Shown here: positions 542-54,244 of the stretch, one piece after another | Layout of the letters: each line of letters opens with the position of its first letter | Position numbering within the stretch: the first letter of the stretch is position 1 | IMG/VR virus record: IMGVR_UViG_3300021963_000074 | Coordinates: 26,743-90,742 of that record | DNA length: 64,000 nt | Reading direction: 5' to 3' (one strand) | Source: a virus | The notes under the pieces: generated by a model | Told to the model about the DNA's origin: nothing | The model's input: the letters and a program-made list of their open reading frames with translations, nothing else | Database searches by the model: none | Translations under genes and position numbers: made by a program

Positions 542-1243
542 TCATTGTTCTGGGCGTTTCTCTAGTTTAAATCTACTCTTAACCATATCCCCAAACATAA
601 TACTAATCAAAGTAGTGATAGAATCATCGTTATAATCAATAAAATAATGACTAGAACAATAGGGGCCATACCAGTAATATTGTTTAGATTTACCTAGTAA
701 CCAGTTATTTAGTGCATTACTGGGAACAATCACAGTTTCAGTATCTTTATATCTATCTATAAATTTATATAAATCATCTTTAAATTTATCATCAACTCTT
801 TTAGATTTTAAATAGATCCTATATTTGTGAGTGGGTTCTTTAACAAAATACTTAGTACCCTTAGGTACCTCAGTGTCAACTTCGGTATAGTCAAACTCGC
901 AATCAAAATTTTCTACCTGCTTTAAAAAATCTAAATCATTAGAAAATACAGATGCAATATTACCTTCCATACGTATTGTATGTGTGCGATCTTTACCAAT
1001 AGGCAAAGAACTTTTCCAATCTAAAAATTTCTTAATACTTTCTATATTAGCATTTTTCCATCTAGTATTTCTATTAGAAAGGTATTCGTCAATGTTATGC
1101 GCTGATTTCACAAACCAGCACATTGTTATACCCTCACAATAAATCCTAGCCCTATAATTATATTTGCCGTAATACAGACTACCGCGATTATCAATGTAGC
1201 CTACGCCATCATTGCGGATCGGTGTTAACTTTAATAATCCCAT
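542..1243 (-). CDS. Hypothetical protein
   Basis: 233-aa ORF overlapping the end of clpA. Confidence 0.75.
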   Translation of the reverse strand: MGLLKLTPIRNDGVGYIDNRGSLYYGKYNYRARIYCEGITMCWFVKSAHNIDEYLSNRNTRWKNANIESIKKFLDWKSSLPIGKDRTHTIRMEGNIASVFSNDLDFLKQVENFDCEFDYTEVDTEVPKGTKYFVKEPTHKYRIYLKSKRVDDKFKDDLYKFIDRYKDTETVIVPSNALNNWLLGKSKQYYWYGPYCSSHYFIDYNDDSITTLISIMFGDMVKSRFKLEKRPEQ

Positions 1244-3491
1244 CTTCCCCTACCTCTGCTGTTAATTTAGGTTGTACATCAAAAACAATTTCGTCATTCT
1301 CAATTCGTGTAAAAATTACGCTATTCTTAATCTTTTCAAATATGATTTTCTTACTCAACGGTACTCTAATCAATGAATCAATCTTTCGTGCTAATGGTCT
1401 AGCACCCATTTTACTATCATATCCCTTTTCAGCTAGATATTCTACAACAGGTTCGCTTAATTGTAAGCTAATGTCGTGTGTATCTTTTAATGATTTCTTC
1501 AAGTCATCGGTAAATTTAATAACGATTTTTTTGATTGCTAGCATATCTAGTTTACCAAACTTACAAATCAAGTCAATGCGATTCCTGAATTCAGGCTTGA
1601 AGAAATCTTTAAGTGCTTTATCATCTTCTCCGGTACGTTCTTGATTACCAAAGCCTATCTGATTACGCTCACTATCACTTGCTCCCAAGTTACTGGTCAT
1701 AATAATGATACAGTTTTTAGCATTAACTTCTTTGCCATTGGTACCAGTAACACGACCATCATCAAGTAATTGCAAGAAGATGTTAAAGATATCTGGGTGT
1801 GCTTTTTCTACTTCATCAAATAGTAGAATACTATGCGGGTTCTTACTTAGGTCATTGATAAGTTTACCACCACCCAAACTACCCTCACCGAATCCTACAT
1901 ATCCAGGGGGTGCGCCCAACAATGCTGACACATTGAACTTCTCTGAGTACTCACTCATATCATATTTCAATAATGTCATATCAAGATTCTTGCTTAATAG
2001 TCGAGCCAATTCTGTTTTACCAGTACCAGTTGGGCCTAAGAATAAGAAACTTGCCATTGGCTTAGTTTGAGTTCCAATACCTGCAAAACTTACATATATA
2101 CGCTCAAGTACTTTATCTACTGTTTCCTCTTGTCCGTATAATCTATCTTTGATATTACTCTCCAAAGCATGAATTCTATCATAGTTATCATCTTTGAGTT
2201 TATCTGCGGGCACACCAGCAATTCGTTCTACTTGCTCGTAAATCAATTCTTTAGTAATATCTGCACCCTTGTTTTCCAACACACGTTGTTTAGCACATGC
2301 CGCATCTAACAAATCAATTGACTTGTCTGGATTTTTACGGTCATGAATATAACGTGTAGCACTTTCTACTGCGGCAGTGATTGCATCATCAGTAATGTTT
2401 ACATTATGAAATTCATTAAGCCTAACACTCAATCCAGTTAAGATTTTGATTGTGCTTTCAGTTGAAGGTTCATCAATACTGACCCTATAGAACCTGCGCA
2501 TCAACGCACGATCTTTCTCAAAACTCTCGTAGTATTCTTCCCAAGTTGTGCTAGCAATAACTTTTAGATTACCCTTAGTAATCGCTGGTTTAATCATGTT
2601 GGCAAAGTCTACTGAGCCGTTACTAGCACTTCCTGAACCCTTCATAGTATGTGCTTCGTCAATAAACAATATTGCTTTCTTCTTAGCTACCAGTGCTTCT
2701 AGTACTGCTTTGATTTTTTCTTCAAAGTCTCCCCGATACTTGCTACCGGCAAGTAAATTGCCAACTTCAATACTGTATACTTCATGGTCTAACAAGAACT
2801 CGGGAACATTACCGTCTGAAATTTGCTGTGCAAGTCCTTCAGCAATTGCTGTTTTACCTACACCAGGATCACCAACCATCAATACATTTGACTTGAATCG
2901 TTTAGCTAGTACATTGATAATGTCATTCAATTCTGAACTACGACCGATCAATGGGTCTAATTTACCAGTACGTGCTAATTCGCTTAGATTGATAGTGTAC
3001 TCATCCAAGATTTCGTTAGCTTGGCTATCAGTCAATTTAGCTGGTGTGTCGCTATTTTTATAATGTTTCTGCCAATATGGTACAAACTCATTTTTAGTTA
3101 AACCATATTTTAACAAGAAATAATGTGCATGGCTATTTGTTTCTGCACTGATACTTAGATACAAGTCAATAGTAGTTACAACTTTTCTTCCTGTAAATAG
3201 TACCTGAGTGATACTACGATTCATTACACGTTCTAATGCATTAGTTTTACGTGGTTGAATCTCTATCCCCGTAATATTTTTCTGTTCAATTGCTCGTAGA
3301 TTATCAACATAGTTGACTAGTTCTTTGGTCATTGTTTCAGTATCAACACCATAATTATCTAAACACTTTTTAAATGGTGCATGAGTTACTAATGATAGTA
3401 ATAGATGTTCTATTGTGCAATATTCATGGCTACGTGCTTTAGCCAAATTAACGGCTTGTTCAATGATAACCTCAATTTCAGGACTGTTCAT
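1209..3491 (-). CDS. clpA: ClpA-like ATP-dependent Clp protease ATPase subunit
   Basis: Clp N-domain, two AAA modules (GDPGVGKT/LFIDEAH and GPTGTGKT/LLFDEVEKAH), GAPPGYVG, IGF loop, no ClpB middle domain. Confidence 0.93.
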   Translation of the reverse strand: MNSPEIEVIIEQAVNLAKARSHEYCTIEHLLLSLVTHAPFKKCLDNYGVDTETMTKELVNYVDNLRAIEQKNITGIEIQPRKTNALERVMNRSITQVLFTGRKVVTTIDLYLSISAETNSHAHYFLLKYGLTKNEFVPYWQKHYKNSDTPAKLTDSQANEILDEYTINLSELARTGKLDPLIGRSSELNDIINVLAKRFKSNVLMVGDPGVGKTAIAEGLAQQISDGNVPEFLLDHEVYSIEVGNLLAGSKYRGDFEEKIKAVLEALVAKKKAILFIDEAHTMKGSGSASNGSVDFANMIKPAITKGNLKVIASTTWEEYYESFEKDRALMRRFYRVSIDEPSTESTIKILTGLSVRLNEFHNVNITDDAITAAVESATRYIHDRKNPDKSIDLLDAACAKQRVLENKGADITKELIYEQVERIAGVPADKLKDDNYDRIHALESNIKDRLYGQEETVDKVLERIYVSFAGIGTQTKPMASFLFLGPTGTGKTELARLLSKNLDMTLLKYDMSEYSEKFNVSALLGAPPGYVGFGEGSLGGGKLINDLSKNPHSILLFDEVEKAHPDIFNIFLQLLDDGRVTGTNGKEVNAKNCIIIMTSNLGASDSERNQIGFGNQERTGEDDKALKDFFKPEFRNRIDLICKFGKLDMLAIKKIVIKFTDDLKKSLKDTHDISLQLSEPVVEYLAEKGYDSKMGARPLARKIDSLIRVPLSKKIIFEKIKNSVIFTRIENDEIVFDVQPKLTAEVGEDGIIKVNTDPQ

Positions 3492-9113: not shown

Positions 9114-9482
9114 TTAATCTCCTTTGTCTGAAATGTATTCGTCTTGCATAGGTTCGTCACTAACTAGCAGTATATCATTAGAATCAACTCTACGCAACGT
9201 CTTTTTACCCTCTTCATCTTCAATATCAATTCCTCTTGTCCAGCGACCGTGAGCAATACAAATATATTGACCAATTTTCAAATCACCGTCATACTCTGGT
9301 CCAAACTTATAAATCTGTGCCCAACGAGGACGAATGCCAGTACCCTTCATATCATCATTCAACAAAATAATACCACTTGTAGTAATACGCTGGTCAAAAT
9401 GCATATCGGTTACAACAATATAATCCTTAATAGGCTTAAATTGTTCTTTATTAAATTTATGTGCTTCAAATGCTAATTTCAC
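9114..9482 (-). CDS. groES: GroES-like co-chaperonin
   Basis: KPIKDYIVV, TTSGIIL mobile loop, DILLV. Confidence 0.8.
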   Translation of the reverse strand: MKLAFEAHKFNKEQFKPIKDYIVVTDMHFDQRITTSGIILLNDDMKGTGIRPRWAQIYKFGPEYDGDLKIGQYICIAHGRWTRGIDIEDEEGKKTLRRVDSNDILLVSDEPMQDEYISDKGD

Positions 9483-9781
9483 TTTTTAATATCCTCATCG
9501 TTATCAAATAATTCTTTCTCTTCCGAAGTCAAATCTTCTATTGCACTGGGCTTTGGAATATTCACTGGCTTATTAACAGCATTTGGCTGTCGCTGACCAA
9601 TTGCTTTTTGATAGTTGTTTTTCACACGTTTGGTACTGTCTTTAATAACTTGGTTGTTACTATCAACAATGTCACCACGGGCGTTTACATTCATATTTCC
9701 CACTGCTCTGACTTTTTCATTCTTTGCGGCTAAACGGCTCATATCAACCATTTTGCCCTGTGCTGTTCTATATGCTGGCAT
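9479..9781 (-). CDS. Hypothetical protein
   Basis: 100-aa ORF with AGGAG RBS. Confidence 0.7.
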   Translation of the reverse strand: MPAYRTAQGKMVDMSRLAAKNEKVRAVGNMNVNARGDIVDSNNQVIKDSTKRVKNNYQKAIGQRQPNAVNKPVNIPKPSAIEDLTSEEKELFDNDEDIKK

Positions 9782-9790
9782 AATTTTCTC

Positions 9791-10309
9791 CTATTTTAAA
9801 AATTCATCTATTGATAAATCATAATGTATGCTATTTATTCTGTGGATCCCTATCAAATACAGAACATAACTGCTAACACTACTGCCCCTACCTACTCCCC
9901 AAACAATATTATGTTCACGCATCGTATCCACTAGATACTTGCAGTAACGCAATAGTGGGAACATATCACGTTCTAAAAATAGAATTAATTCACTTCCAGT
10001 TCGTTGTAGTTCTTCATCTGTTTTACACTTATCTAAAACATATTTGGCTATGTCTAACTCTTTGTATTCTTCGGGTACAAACCAGTTATTCTGATTTAGT
10101 GTATCAAATGTTTCAATATCTATATCTAACTCAGAGTATGTGACTAGATTTGGAAACACCATATCTATAGGTGATAGCAAATCTAACTCTGGGTTATTAA
10201 TAGGTGATTCTATGATTGCGTTTTTAACGATTATGGTAGGGTCAGCTAAAAAAATATGACATAGGTCATTTTCATTTAGAATTTGTCTACTGTACTTGTC
10301 AATTCGCAT
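9791..10309 (-). CDS. DNA polymerase III alpha (DnaE)-like N-terminal palm fragment
   Basis: WGVGRGSSVSSYVLYLIGIHRINSIHYDLSIDEFLK matches DnaE GPGRGSxAGSLVAYxLxITxxDPxxxxLLFERFL. Confidence 0.85.
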   Translation of the reverse strand: MRIDKYSRQILNENDLCHIFLADPTIIVKNAIIESPINNPELDLLSPIDMVFPNLVTYSELDIDIETFDTLNQNNWFVPEEYKELDIAKYVLDKCKTDEELQRTGSELILFLERDMFPLLRYCKYLVDTMREHNIVWGVGRGSSVSSYVLYLIGIHRINSIHYDLSIDEFLK

Positions 10310-48670: not shown

Positions 48671-50095
48671 TCATTTTTTCAGAGTATTCAGTAGGGCCTT
48701 GAGTTTTGCCCCCTGAACATCAGCTACCACCCGATTGGTAACCGGTTCTATTTCCCCTGTATCTTTGTTAATTGCTTCTGTAACCGTTGATTGGGGCTTT
48801 AATCTACTCATAATATCATTGGGACTTGGGCTAGGCTTATATTTTGCTTGCTGTTCAGCATACCCGTCAGGATCCTCGTCTGTAATACGCATAGTCTCAA
48901 TATTATATTCCAAGTCAATTTTCTGCCCGACGCCTGTCGAACTACGACTTTTCATACATTGAATCTGATATTTCCCGCGCTCACGCATACTACGGCTTGT
49001 AAAGATACCAAATACATTATCTGCTGTGTTAATCTTACTGATACCACCTGCAATATGACTATGATCAAACTCAATTTCTTCAACTGCACTACGATTCAAC
49101 TGACTTGCAGTTACCATGAGAATTCCCAACTCTTTTGCTAAGTTACGCAATTCTTCACTAACATACTTGTCTTTAATAAACTGATCGTTGGGATTGACTT
49201 TGACGCTTACCGGCATGACTAGATCCAAGTAATCAATCATAACAAAGTCAACTTTGATTCCAGTCTGAATCTGTACTTCTTTTAGATATGAACGAATGTC
49301 GTTAACGTTACTTTGTGCGGGTAATCCTTTAACACGATATTGTCCAGATTTTTTGCCTGCCATTTTAACTCTTAATTCAGTTCCGTCAATATCTTTACGG
49401 ATATCTCTAGTACTCATCATAGTCAACATTGCATCAGTTCTTAATGATGTTAATTCTTCACTCAATTCTAAACTGATATAAACTCCGCTGAGTCCCATCT
49501 GCAACCAATTCAATGCGATGTTCATCATAACCAATGATTTACCTGAACCTGAGCCACCTGCAAAGATGTTTAGTTCCCCACGACTAAAGCCACCATACAA
49601 TAGTTTGTCCATCTGTGGCCAGCCCGTACTCTGTTGACCACCTGCATTGAAATATTTGTTGATACGTGCTTTAGGGTCGGCAAAGTAATCTGTACCCATA
49701 TCACGTTGTAAACTGATTTGAACTGCCTCTTTGATTAGTTTTTCAACCGGGCCAAAGTCACCCTTCTCTAACAGATCGGCTGATTTAAGAATCGCCCGTT
49801 CTAGTTCTTGTCTTTTAGTAAATGATTCAAATTCTTCCAAGAACCATTCAGTGTGTTTATCACCAAAATCTTCAATCAATTCAAGTTGTACACTTGTGGT
49901 TGCTTTGATTTGAGTAATGTCCGGTAACAGACTATACTTCTCACTATACTCCTTCATAAACTCTGCCACTTTTCTTAGTGACTTGTCAAAGTTATCCGGA
50001 TTCATTATATTCATAACTCTTGTATACAATTCTGCATTTGTTAGCATCATTTGTAAAAAGAGTCGTTGAATATCTGTATTATATTCCTTTTGCAA
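48671..50095 (-). CDS. Replicative DnaB/gp41-like helicase
   Basis: GGSGSGKS, IDYLDL, TASQLNR and KSRSS motifs. Confidence 0.92.
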   Translation of the reverse strand: MQKEYNTDIQRLFLQMMLTNAELYTRVMNIMNPDNFDKSLRKVAEFMKEYSEKYSLLPDITQIKATTSVQLELIEDFGDKHTEWFLEEFESFTKRQELERAILKSADLLEKGDFGPVEKLIKEAVQISLQRDMGTDYFADPKARINKYFNAGGQQSTGWPQMDKLLYGGFSRGELNIFAGGSGSGKSLVMMNIALNWLQMGLSGVYISLELSEELTSLRTDAMLTMMSTRDIRKDIDGTELRVKMAGKKSGQYRVKGLPAQSNVNDIRSYLKEVQIQTGIKVDFVMIDYLDLVMPVSVKVNPNDQFIKDKYVSEELRNLAKELGILMVTASQLNRSAVEEIEFDHSHIAGGISKINTADNVFGIFTSRSMRERGKYQIQCMKSRSSTGVGQKIDLEYNIETMRITDEDPDGYAEQQAKYKPSPSPNDIMSRLKPQSTVTEAINKDTGEIEPVTNRVVADVQGAKLKALLNTLKK

Positions 50096-51050
50096 TTTTA
50101 CGCCTCTGCATTTCTATTTTTATTTTACTATTTGTTTTATTTTGTATTATACTTAGTAACGTAGGCAGCTTGCCATATCTTATTACTGCGTCATTTACAT
50201 CTTTAATATCAGTATCCCAATTAGGTAAACTGACTTGATATCCCAATTCTAATGCTTTATCACATATCTTTAATCCAGTTGTATCCCTATCCGGCACAAC
50301 AACTATTTGTTTGTTTAGTTGTGACAATAACATAACTTGGTCAGTGCTTATGTCATTATGCATTAATGCAACACCATCAATTGATAATGCGTCAAATATA
50401 CCTTCTGTAACTATACAGACACTCCAATCTTTGTGTTGTTTGTCAATGTTGAATACGTAACCAGGTTGTTGGTCATTAATAAATTTAGGAATCTTATTAT
50501 CAAGATACCTGCTAGTATTCCCTACTATTTCATTTTTATAAGTGTAGGGTATAACAATCCTATTTTTGTTTCTTCCTGAATCATTCGGTGTGACTACAAA
50601 ATAATAGTTCTCTAAATTTATTTTTCTTTTTATAAGATAATCTATATATGTTTTATGATCAGGGTTGCCAACATCTAATAATTCTCCAGGGGGTAAAGTC
50701 TTTGCTTTGAATTCAATTTTATGAAATTGTTTTTTACCACTAAAGTCTAAAAAATCTTTGTGTCGTAGACTATCAAGATTCCATCTTTGTATTTGTTCAG
50801 TATCTACCCCGCACCATAATAAAAATTGTCTTGTTTTTGGGAAGATAGGTTTACCTAATTCAAAACTACAATTAAACCCACAATTAAAACAGTTGTATAA
50901 CCAATGTTGAGGGCCCTCAAATTTAATTCCACCGCGAAATCTAGTATCAGGACGATGCCCATCGTGGATACAACAGATAGCGTTGAAACTTGTCCAACCA
51001 ATAGATGTTTGTCGTTTTTTACCTGGAATTAAACTTAGGATATCGAACAT
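50079..51050 (-). CDS. DNA primase (gp61-like)
   Basis: Zn-binding C..CFNCG, TOPRIM TEGIFD, DRD and KDVND motifs. Confidence 0.88.
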   Translation of the reverse strand: MFDILSLIPGKKRQTSIGWTSFNAICCIHDGHRPDTRFRGGIKFEGPQHWLYNCFNCGFNCSFELGKPIFPKTRQFLLWCGVDTEQIQRWNLDSLRHKDFLDFSGKKQFHKIEFKAKTLPPGELLDVGNPDHKTYIDYLIKRKINLENYYFVVTPNDSGRNKNRIVIPYTYKNEIVGNTSRYLDNKIPKFINDQQPGYVFNIDKQHKDWSVCIVTEGIFDALSIDGVALMHNDISTDQVMLLSQLNKQIVVVPDRDTTGLKICDKALELGYQVSLPNWDTDIKDVNDAVIRYGKLPTLLSIIQNKTNSKIKIEMQRRKIAKGI

Positions 51051-51834: not shown

Positions 51835-51908
51835 AATATGGCTCCTTTATACTATTTATAAAAATATATTGGGTAAAGATAATTGATAAATATTCCGTAA
51901 CAATAATA

Positions 51909-52289
51909 ATGATACATAACGAATTTTTCAAAAAACTAACAGAAAATCATCCTTTTATTACGGTATGTTCCTACGCTGGTCAAGACTATGTAGGTATAGT
52001 GCAAAATAGGGATGATATAGTCACTACAATATATGACTATGGATCTATCATTCATCAAGATTTAAGAGAAAAATTCTTAGAACTAGGCGATATCTGGTGG
52101 TGGGAAAGTAATAGACTGGTACCTATTAATATGTTTCTTAAGGACGACTGGGTCGCTTTCAAACCATATATACGTACATTTAACAATAAAAGTCTTACTA
52201 TCCTACATGGTCCCATATGTAGTATGCTGGAACTCAGCAAGCGTAAAAGTAAACGGAAATCAATTACTTTGGTTAAGCGTATGCTCTGA
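51909..52289 (+). CDS. Hypothetical protein (start revised to 51909)
   Basis: TAAATA upstream, MIHNEFF... Confidence 0.7.
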   Translation: MIHNEFFKKLTENHPFITVCSYAGQDYVGIVQNRDDIVTTIYDYGSIIHQDLREKFLELGDIWWWESNRLVPINMFLKDDWVAFKPYIRTFNNKSLTILHGPICSMLELSKRKSKRKSITLVKRML

Positions 52290-52850
52290 TTCAAGTAAAT
52301 TCATATGCACAACGACCAACTGTGCATAAGCCAAACTATGACTCTTTTTAAAGTGATATCCGTCAGTGCCTTTATCCCATACAGTTTTACTGACTGTTTT
52401 CCAATCTAACCCAATTAAGTGTTTCTTAGCAGGGCGAATAATAGCAAGAAACATAGCAAGTCTAGGTATACTATTGATTGGTTCTGGCATCTTTTGCATA
52501 CTGTTGTAATGATTGCTTAAGTGAATTAATTTCTCTACAAACACTCTATCCTTTAGTCTTTCCCATTTAGGTTCTTGCATTAATTCAGTTAGATGAGCCT
52601 CATCACTAACCTTATCATATACATGAACATTCAACAAGTCTAGTTTGATATACCCACGATTTTCTGCTTCTGTATAATCTAAGTTTGCTATTCCATTGAT
52701 AGCATCGTAGGGGATATCAGTAACATAGATTCCTGTAGCATGTTTGCGTATTGGATTGACTTTACGCATTGCCGCAGGTATATGGTTGATATGTTCTAAT
52801 ATTTTATCTCTGTTACCAAAGTCAATATCAATGTCTGAATTAAATTTCAT
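52260..52850 (-). CDS. DNA polymerase III alpha (DnaE)-like catalytic mini-fragment
   Basis: DIDIDF, KHATGIYV, GYIKLDLL, LAIIRP and GYHFKKSHSLAYA match DnaE motifs in order. Confidence 0.88.
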   Translation of the reverse strand: MKFNSDIDIDFGNRDKILEHINHIPAAMRKVNPIRKHATGIYVTDIPYDAINGIANLDYTEAENRGYIKLDLLNVHVYDKVSDEAHLTELMQEPKWERLKDRVFVEKLIHLSNHYNSMQKMPEPINSIPRLAMFLAIIRPAKKHLIGLDWKTVSKTVWDKGTDGYHFKKSHSLAYAQLVVVHMNLLESEHTLNQSN

Positions 52851-53308
52851 CTGTCTTTATCTGATAATATAGGTTCAATTTCAGTAGGCCATATAATATT
52901 GTATTGATTCCATTTGAAGTTTTCTTCAGCTTCTTTATTGTAAGGAGCGTCAACGATATATTGAACTACTGTTCTATCACTTAATGCCATGTAACCATGT
53001 GCATATTGGGGCGGAATGAATAATCCAGTTGTATCATCTAATTCTACGCCAAACCATTTACCTGTTTCTGGTTCTAGTGCTACATCAAATATTCTTCCTT
53101 GTAATGGCATTACTAATTTACTTTGATTCTGACGATGCATACCGCGAATAACGTTTTGTTTTGATATTGCAGTATTTAATTGACGGAATGTTCCTCTCAT
53201 GCCATCATTACTTGATTTCCATGTCTCATAAAATTGTCCTCTAAAGTCAGAGTTACTTATATGGTACACTACTTGTACACCTGGTAATAGTTCTCCGTAT
53301 GTTTTCAT
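52847..53308 (-). CDS. rmlC: dTDP-4-dehydrorhamnose 3,5-epimerase-like cupin
   Basis: DFRGQFYE, IRGMH and FIPPQYAHGY motifs. Confidence 0.85.
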   Translation of the reverse strand: MKTYGELLPGVQVVYHISNSDFRGQFYETWKSSNDGMRGTFRQLNTAISKQNVIRGMHRQNQSKLVMPLQGRIFDVALEPETGKWFGVELDDTTGLFIPPQYAHGYMALSDRTVVQYIVDAPYNKEAEENFKWNQYNIIWPTEIEPILSDKDR

Positions 53309-53874
53309 TTTTTTGGCTCCACTAATCCTGTTTTAATTAATTTCATATATGCTTGCTGTACTACAACAGCCTGTCGTTCAGCATCTTCTACTGCTTTGTG
53401 ACTTGTAACATGACCACCTGACTTGAGTTTAACACCAGTAATATCATAGATTGTTCTAGTGTCTCTGATGTTCCAGAAACTCCAAGGTGGCAGTTGTTTA
53501 AAGTTACGCCATGCACTTTCCATGACAACAATGTCAAAGCTAGCACCGTTACTCCATACATGACCATTATTGTAACGCCAGCACCATTTGTATAGTGTAT
53601 CCATACAATCACTAAATGATACTCTATCTCTATCACCCAATGCTTCTTCTTGTGCAGCCTCGCTTTGTTCACTCCACCAACGCAATGTATCTTCATTTAT
53701 AGTACGATTGTATAACTCCGTTTGGTCTTCAATCGTAGGACGTAACTCTAGTCTTTCAATAATACCTTGACCTTTAGGGTCAAACAATACTGCGCCGATA
53801 GTAAGTATAACACAGTCTGGACCTGTATCTAAACTCTCAATGTCAATCATTATATCAGCCATTTGTTTTGTCAC
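53305..53874 (-). CDS. DEDDh 3'-5' exonuclease
   Basis: MIDIESL, WSNGASFD, RDTRT and HKAVEDA motifs. Confidence 0.88.
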   Translation of the reverse strand: MTKQMADIMIDIESLDTGPDCVILTIGAVLFDPKGQGIIERLELRPTIEDQTELYNRTINEDTLRWWSEQSEAAQEEALGDRDRVSFSDCMDTLYKWCWRYNNGHVWSNGASFDIVVMESAWRNFKQLPPWSFWNIRDTRTIYDITGVKLKSGGHVTSHKAVEDAERQAVVVQQAYMKLIKTGLVEPKK

Positions 53875-54244
53875 TTAAATATTTTGCTGCCTTCTCTAAT
53901 AATTCAGGATTATCGTTAAAATTCCCACATCCTAAATTGCATTTTCTACACAACCATCCACGAAATGTTTTTTCTTCATGGTTATGATCCATGACCCACG
54001 GTCTACCCTTTTTTCGTAGTGTAGGGTTAATATTTTCATTCAATTGTTCTTCTGTTTGATTGCATATAGGGCATACATGATTATCAGGTATAGGTGGCGC
54101 AGTTTTTGATATTTCTTTTCGTTCTTTGGCTAGTTTACTATCACATAGTTTACAATCAGACCGTAATTTTTTACCACCACTATCATTACCGAAGTCTGAT
54201 AGTGGTTTTATTTCTGTACAACGATTGCATTTTTTACTATTCAT
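53855..54244 (-). CDS. Endonuclease VII-like (His-Me) nuclease
   Basis: CPIC, DHNH...RGWLCRKCN..G.FNDN and KAAKYL motifs. Confidence 0.85.
   Translation of the reverse strand: MNSKKCNRCTEIKPLSDFGNDSGGKKLRSDCKLCDSKLAKERKEISKTAPPIPDNHVCPICNQTEEQLNENINPTLRKKGRPWVMDHNHEEKTFRGWLCRKCNLGCGNFNDNPELLEKAAKYLSDKTNG

Follow-up and report, generated by a model that had tools for sequence, protein, structure and literature searches.

A predicted two-chain minimal split DNA polymerase III alpha in an uncultured freshwater phage

What can a C-family polymerase do when its catalytic core is divided between two short genes that lie far apart in the genome? This question is raised by a 64,000-nucleotide stretch of viral DNA (hereafter the window), which forms the last 64 kb of a 90,742-bp IMG/VR virus contig with a completeness rating of approximately 25%. 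Its other genes mark it as myovirus DNA and include those for the tail sheath and tube, a primase, and two helicases, one DnaB and one UvsW-like. It also encodes a 760-aa ATP-dependent protease/AAA+ protein (1209–3491, minus strand; phrog_4871, E = 1e-235), a host-like chaperone-protease that is unusual in a phage. The gene at 52260–52850 on the minus strand encodes a 196-aa protein (the C-half), which the original prediction read as the catalytic half of a miniaturized DnaE-like polymerase. The complementary half was assigned to a 172-aa protein (the N-half) encoded at 9791–10309 on the same strand, 41,951 bp (approximately 42 kb) away. Here we describe the homology, the co-occurrence, and the gene neighbourhood of the two halves, and weigh what a two-chain enzyme of this kind is most likely to do.

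Homology and fold of the two halves

The N-half comprises palm helices and a nucleotide-binding GRGS loop (G140–S144). It matches Pfam PF07733 (DNA_pol3_alpha) positions 19–94 with an E value of 3e-9 and phrog_11127 with an E value of 9e-43, and in the PDB search it aligns to residues 394–454 of Taq Pol III alpha and to residues 348–392 of the E. coli enzyme. Its top five Foldseek matches are all DnaE, while the first ~100 residues, upstream of the Pfam palm match that starts at residue 98, gave no PHP match. The W-G-x-G-R-G-S-S loop is invariant at W137, G138, G140, R141, G142, S143, and S144 in 66 sequences. The chain terminates with VWGVGRGSSVSSYVLYLIGIHRINSIHYDLSIDEFLK (...IDEFLK), aligned to the ...ERFL of Pol III alpha, and the C-half, which opens with MKFNS-DIDID, starts at this very place, as the original prediction had it. 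A 100-aa gene (9479–9781, minus strand) follows the N-half in the same frame, with a TAG and three codons between them. The PF07733 match runs 5 codons beyond the N-half stop, here and in some relatives; we judged this overrun to be chance rather than polymerase sequence because the downstream 100-aa protein is low-complexity and not polymerase-like.

The C-half has no significant Pfam match but matches phrog_11778 ("DNA polymerase") with an E value of 2e-53. A PDB search with the single sequence gave no match and a profile was required; the profile built from 99 homologues hit Pol III alpha chains only (E = 4.5e-5). The matching blocks are colinear in E. coli, with residues 5–21 corresponding to 402–418, residues 54–140 to 538–641 (including KFD555 and FRPG), and residues 151–179 to 739–769. 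[quoted passage not shown] With each half represented by more than 7000 protein clusters at 90% identity, and with the PHROG E values given above, the homology is far beyond chance.

The AlphaFold (AF2) model of the C-half has a pLDDT of 93.7. In VIA-align it superimposes on residues 458–841 of Taq Pol III alpha with a Z score of 9.9 and an rmsd of 3.5 Å over 190 residues, on PolC 968–1358 with a Z score of 9.8, and on E. coli 397–784 with a Z score of 7.8. The best 13 rows are all C-family polymerases (Z 6.3–9.9), and the next unrelated fold has a Z score of 3.4. The 190 residues span what needs approximately 385 residues in DnaE. Missing are the thumb (~90 aa, located between the DxD and KH..G strands), ~90 finger residues that would separate the RP motif from the KSH helix, and everything past E. 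coli residue ~784, that is, the rest of the fingers and the HhH/clamp-binding, OB, and tau-binding regions. The profile and structural alignments to DnaE thus bear out the predicted loss of the thumb, most of the fingers, and the HhH, clamp-binding, and OB regions. Both halves match Pol III alpha in PDB searches, and these comparisons confirm, at the level of sequence homology, that the two ORFs encode two halves of a stripped-down DnaE/Pol III alpha-type polymerase core.

The active site of E. coli Pol III alpha consists of D401, D403, and D555, and H760 is a putative steric gate against ribonucleotides (PMC8485763). With HMMER numbering, the E. coli motif reads D401-F-D403-V-D405, so D6 and D8 of the C-half are equivalent to the catalytic D401 and D403, and D71 to D555. 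K69 corresponds to K553 and H171 to H760, the latter within a finger helix K169-S170-H171 that is equivalent to K758-S759-H760. Across 99 C-half sequences, with identities as low as 29%, no substitution occurs at D6, D8, K69, D71, R139, or P140, so the claim that all three catalytic aspartates are retained stands. A further set of residues, D10, H37, G40, K168, and H171, is at least 90% conserved in the same 99 sequences.

Pairing of the two halves

If the two genes encode one enzyme, they should travel together. Each of the five long IMG/VR relatives, two of which are rated 100% complete (367 and 360 kb), carries one N-half and one C-half, 36–44 kb apart. The same is true of all eight isolates (Atu_ph07, Paride, RaK2, Vibrio phage, SCTP-2, GAP32, Phosso, and Xoo-sp13), where the two halves lie at separate places. 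The halves thus occur once each in 13 of 13 long or complete relatives. Homologues are present in 96 jumbo phage records, in which tblastn with a fused query found 188 places and no fused form. The split point is the same in all lineages, the present one and 13 others: the N-halves end 0–3 residues after EF(L/F)K, and the C-halves start 1–20 residues before DxDxD.

Selection was assessed by pairwise dN/dS. The C-half has a value of 0.10 (794 pairs), close to those of DnaB (0.10) and the primase (0.14), and the N-half a value of 0.15 from a single usable pair, all of these values being rough because dS is near saturation. Both halves thus appear to be under purifying selection, with a rough dN/dS of approximately 0.1 that for the N-half rests on one pair. 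These data bear on the reading that the genes are the decaying remains of a dnaE captured from a host, or that the halves are rejoined by a split intein, the latter recalling the well-known split DnaE with trans-splicing inteins. Decay is contradicted by the low dN/dS and by catalytic residues that stay invariant throughout thousands of clusters, and trans-splicing by the flanks at the split point, which are so short in all lineages that there is no room for intein halves of ~100 and 35 aa. We rejected both forms of this reading and give it hardly any credence.

The predicted structure of the pair points the same way. In the complex model of the N-half with the C-half, all three runs reached an ipSAE of 0.89 against 0.06 for the best control, a score that may reflect memory because the DnaE palm fold has been solved as a single chain. 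The ipSAE mark applied is reached by 58 of 80 solved complexes and by 2 of 110 mismatched pairs. The contacts agree by at least 95% between runs, the partner pLDDT is at least 89, and residues 133–146 of the N-half, which hold the GS loop, contact residues 6–12 of the C-half, which form the DxDxD strand. The halves are modelled as docking into a heterodimer with the GS loop on the DxDxD strand, and the score of this model is to be read as likeness to the single-chain DnaE palm, not as binding. When the N-half was folded alone, the GS loop and the last 14 residues had a pLDDT below 50, which fits a chain that needs a partner.

A natural fused form provides a further view of the pair. Word-based searches for fused forms returned none; the exhaustive representative search alone, with 369 matches at E ≤ 0.001 and at least one fusion among the 150 matches listed, gave P0262, a 375-aa ENA metagenome protein that holds both halves in order. 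Its residues 28–180 align to the N-half (E = 1e-25) and end in ...IKEFIK, followed by the 10-residue linker DNKEGIYNIA and DFDID, and its residues 190–371 align to the C-half. P0262 comes from an ENA contig of 2.4 kb and is a singleton. No relatives of it were found in viral contigs or genome contigs, and the search of metagenome contigs gave just two ordinary full-length DnaE genes. Alignments that mix P0262 with both halves put the N-halves on the wrong part and were excluded from folding. In a quick maximum-likelihood tree (midpoint-rooted, quick search only), the C-part of P0262 groups with the stand-alone C-halves P0278 and P0307 (SH-aLRT 95), beside the SCTP-2 lineage. Its nesting among stand-alone C-halves suggests that the two halves were re-fused secondarily in P0262, within the split clade.

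Two further observations concern other arrangements of DnaE. The ESM Atlas lists clusters of 355–378-aa proteins with PF07733 and PF17657, which by this listing alone are candidate unsplit forms. The metagenome contig OKRZ01000398.1 (6366–10382, plus strand) encodes a full-length-type DnaE in two separate, adjacent ORFs, one for the PHP domain (382 aa) and the other for the polymerase body (933 aa); this is a frameshift or else another kind of split of DnaE.

Taken with the co-occurrence, the invariant residues, the dN/dS of approximately 0.1, and the heterodimer model, the fused homologue supports the proposal that the two intact genes encode one two-chain enzyme of approximately 370 aa.

Gene neighbourhood and the replicase

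The C-half gene lies in a replication block. Upstream of it are an RmlC-like cupin of the dTDP-4-dehydrorhamnose 3,5-epimerase family (52847–53308, minus strand; PF00908, E = 2e-32) and an Rv2179c-like DEDDh 3'-5' exonuclease (53305–53874, minus strand; PF16473, E = 1e-34), with the rmlC-like gene between the exonuclease and the C-half. The predicted ATGA coupling can be read in the sequence at both junctions, joining the exonuclease stop to the rmlC-like start and the rmlC-like stop to the C-half start. From this arrangement, the exonuclease had been suggested as a proofreader acting in trans. Of 83 related loci, 76 do have it upstream of the C-half, in most cases directly adjacent. The PF16473 family is found in 5 of 10 split-enzyme genomes, however, and in RaK2, GAP32, and Phosso its gene is remote from the C-half. 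The adjacency is thus specific to the freshwater clade, and the family is absent or distant in the isolated phages checked, which makes the proofreader idea weak: trans proofreading may be a local possibility, not a family trait. The rmlC-like gene is variable, being present at 13 of the 83 loci, and is better seen as a mobile or optional insert in the replication block than as a conserved partner.

The C-half is followed downstream by a convergent gene of ~120 aa, then by a virion-type protein, a DnaG/gp61-type primase (50079–51050, minus strand; Toprim Pfam matches; phrog_47, E = 8e-33), and a DnaB/gp41-type replicative helicase (48671–50050, minus strand; phrog_19, E = 3e-69). This order is kept as far as Atu_ph07, Paride, the PA5oct-like phages, RaK2, GAP32, SCTP-2, and Vibrio phage, and Phosso has one extra gene before the primase.

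No gene is more tightly linked to the C-half than the convergent gene (51909–52289, plus strand), which overlaps the 3' end of the C-half by 30 bp. The convergent gene encodes 126 aa with a WWW-x-SNR motif and a basic C-terminal tail (KRKSKRKSITLVKR), and matches phrog_11637, a family of unknown function (E = 2e-29). Residues P15, Y27, G29, I30, W63, W64, R69, P72, F84, and G101 are invariant, and its dN/dS of 0.05 makes it more constrained than the C-half. In 82 of 83 loci, among them those of Atu_ph07, Paride, and RaK2, it adjoins the C-half and is read from the opposite strand, and it is annotated beside the C-half also in Vibrio phage, SCTP-2, GAP32, and Phosso. A profile search against the PDB gave chance chemokine rows only. 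In two metatranscriptome runs, small contigs cover 51913–52241 only and none covers the C-half, an observation that has no bearing on C-half expression. One reading would make this protein the third part of a primase-coupled primer-extension polymerase with a Pol-alpha-like role in a T4-like replisome, where the WWW-x-SNR protein would replace the DNA grip of the thumb and the 375-aa fusion would represent the two chains as one unit. We regard this reading as conceivable but unlikely.

The contig carries a replicase of another family. A family B polymerase of 905 aa is encoded at contig positions 471–3188, on the same contig but outside the window, and a family B polymerase is also present in the two 100%-complete relatives, in line with the prediction that the split enzyme is not the main replicase. 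Searches with PHP (PF02811), DNA_pol3_finger (PF17657), and HHH_6 (PF14579) gave no match at E values up to 1 in the contig and the two complete relatives, and PF07733 has one match per genome in the same set. The contig itself covers ~25% of a genome. Because Pfam models can miss very divergent pieces, this absence of other DnaE domains is strong, not absolute. These results bear on the reading that the two halves are parts of a conventional, processive Pol III-type replicase completed by separate genes for the PHP, thumb, fingers, clamp-binding, and OB regions. Such genes could lie in the missing part of a contig that is only ~25% of a genome, but the 367- and 360-kb complete relatives, each with its single PF07733 match and its family B polymerase, provide none of the PHP, finger, or HHH_6 pieces, and we consider a completed replicase very improbable.

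Relation to known enzymes and proposed function

The original prediction implied that such a split enzyme was new. The same enzyme had already been described by Iyer, Anantharaman, Krishnan, Burroughs, and Aravind in 2021 (Viruses 13:63, PMC7824862) as the "minimal split DNA polymerase III alpha" of group 2.2 jumbo phages. In that description, two distantly placed genes encode an N-terminal unit that binds NTP and a C-terminal unit that binds Mg and the template, the genomes concerned also encode a family B polymerase and no further Pol III domains, and the enzyme may help to synthesize one strand or act in repair (PMC7824862). The pair studied here shows all of these defining traits, including a T4-like primase, helicase, and clamp apparatus. 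The N-half is a stand-alone palm unit with the GS motif (PF07733, phrog_11127, Taq 394–454, invariant GRGS), the C-half, likewise standing alone, carries the aspartates that bind Mg and the helices that bind the template, and the two genes are distant from each other in one genome (42 kb here and 36–44 kb in relatives). A family B polymerase is present and other Pol III alpha domains were not found in the complete relatives, the contig itself being ~25% complete. Homologues of the pair occur in Atu_ph07, PA5oct, RaK2, GAP32, and SCTP-2, and judged by sequence, the pair belongs to the group 2.2 (RaK2, PA5oct, Atu_ph07-like) minimal split Pol III alpha. It differs from the group 2.2 isolates in coming from an uncultured freshwater member, with a C-half 35–47% identical to theirs. 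A literature search turned up no experimental paper on any member and nothing beyond the 2021 sequence analysis, and the main text of the omics paper on PA5oct is silent on the polymerase.

Comparison with cellular enzymes shows what has been kept and what has been lost. The pair shares with bacterial DnaE (E. coli 2hnh/5fku, Taq 2hpi/3e0d, and M. tuberculosis 5lew/7pu7) and PolC (3f2b) a core made of the GS motif, the DxD plus D catalytic triad, the K553 equivalent, the RP motif, and the KSH finger helix with the steric-gate histidine. In contrast to these enzymes, it is about one third of the size, its core is divided between two polypeptides, and the main replicase of the phage is a different enzyme. 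It has neither the N-terminal PHP domain nor a thumb, full fingers, HhH/clamp-binding, and OB regions on one chain. The split DnaE of cyanobacteria (the Synechocystis/Nostoc inteins) is likewise encoded by two distant genes. There, intein fragments splice the halves into a full-length DnaE, and the split lies in the fingers, not in the palm. In the phage pair, no intein N- or C-fragments flank the split, the N-half stopping after EFLK and the C-half starting with MKFNS-DIDID. The cut precedes the catalytic DxD, and the two chains of the product have to remain separate.

The position of the cut suggests how the enzyme would work. It separates the GS-motif helices from the DxD strand within what is predicted to be a Pol-beta-like nucleotidyltransferase core, so neither chain would be expected to be active alone. 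Judging from the models, the co-occurrence, and the one natural fusion, the two chains would form a non-covalent heterodimer of approximately 368 aa with an active site built from both. The most likely activity of the heterodimer is DNA-templated extension of a primer with dNTPs, because the catalytic triad, the K553 equivalent, the RP motif, and the steric-gate histidine with its finger helix are kept. Templated synthesis is not assured because the ~90 deleted finger residues may matter for incoming-nucleotide binding in full-length DnaE. The loss of the thumb, most of the fingers, and the clamp-binding, OB, and PHP regions, together with the presence of a family B replicase, suggests a short-patch, distributive accessory polymerase. 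The constant place beside the primase and helicase genes suggests that it would act with the primase-helicase at the fork in primer extension, gap filling, or repair.

The extent of the reduction also invites the reading that the pair is a nucleotidyltransferase that does not copy a template, such as a terminal transferase, a synthase of RNA or nucleotide signals, or a DNA-modifying enzyme in host takeover or anti-defence. What is left is a Pol-beta-like core with few finger helices, the thumb and ~90 finger residues being gone; Foldseek gives very weak structural echoes of MenT and TUTase-type transferases, ranking after the DnaE matches; and the function given by Iyer et al. (PMC7824862) is a proposal only. 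On the other hand, at least 90% of members have kept the K-S-H finger helix with the histidine that in E. coli is a putative gate against the ribose 2'-OH, the C-half stays in the block of primase and replicative helicase across the whole family, and all strong structural matches are DNA polymerases. We therefore consider a non-copying activity rather improbable. A two-chain minimal split Pol III alpha, most likely working as a distributive accessory DNA polymerase and encoded near the primase-helicase genes, is the reading that we favour and consider probable.

The phage that carries this enzyme is widespread in fresh water. DNA nearly identical to window positions 51900–53900 was found in 18 public runs from ~15 studies, mostly freshwater and estuary metagenomes from 2018–2025. 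To our knowledge, the split enzyme is the smallest C-family polymerase core. Its interest lies in a predicted active site assembled from two chains and in its extremely wide distribution, with thousands of clusters. To the 2021 description, the present analysis makes modest additions: the exonuclease and the RmlC-like protein appear not to be general partners of the enzyme, a conserved convergent small gene is tightly linked to it, and a re-fused single-chain homologue supports the joint function of the two halves.
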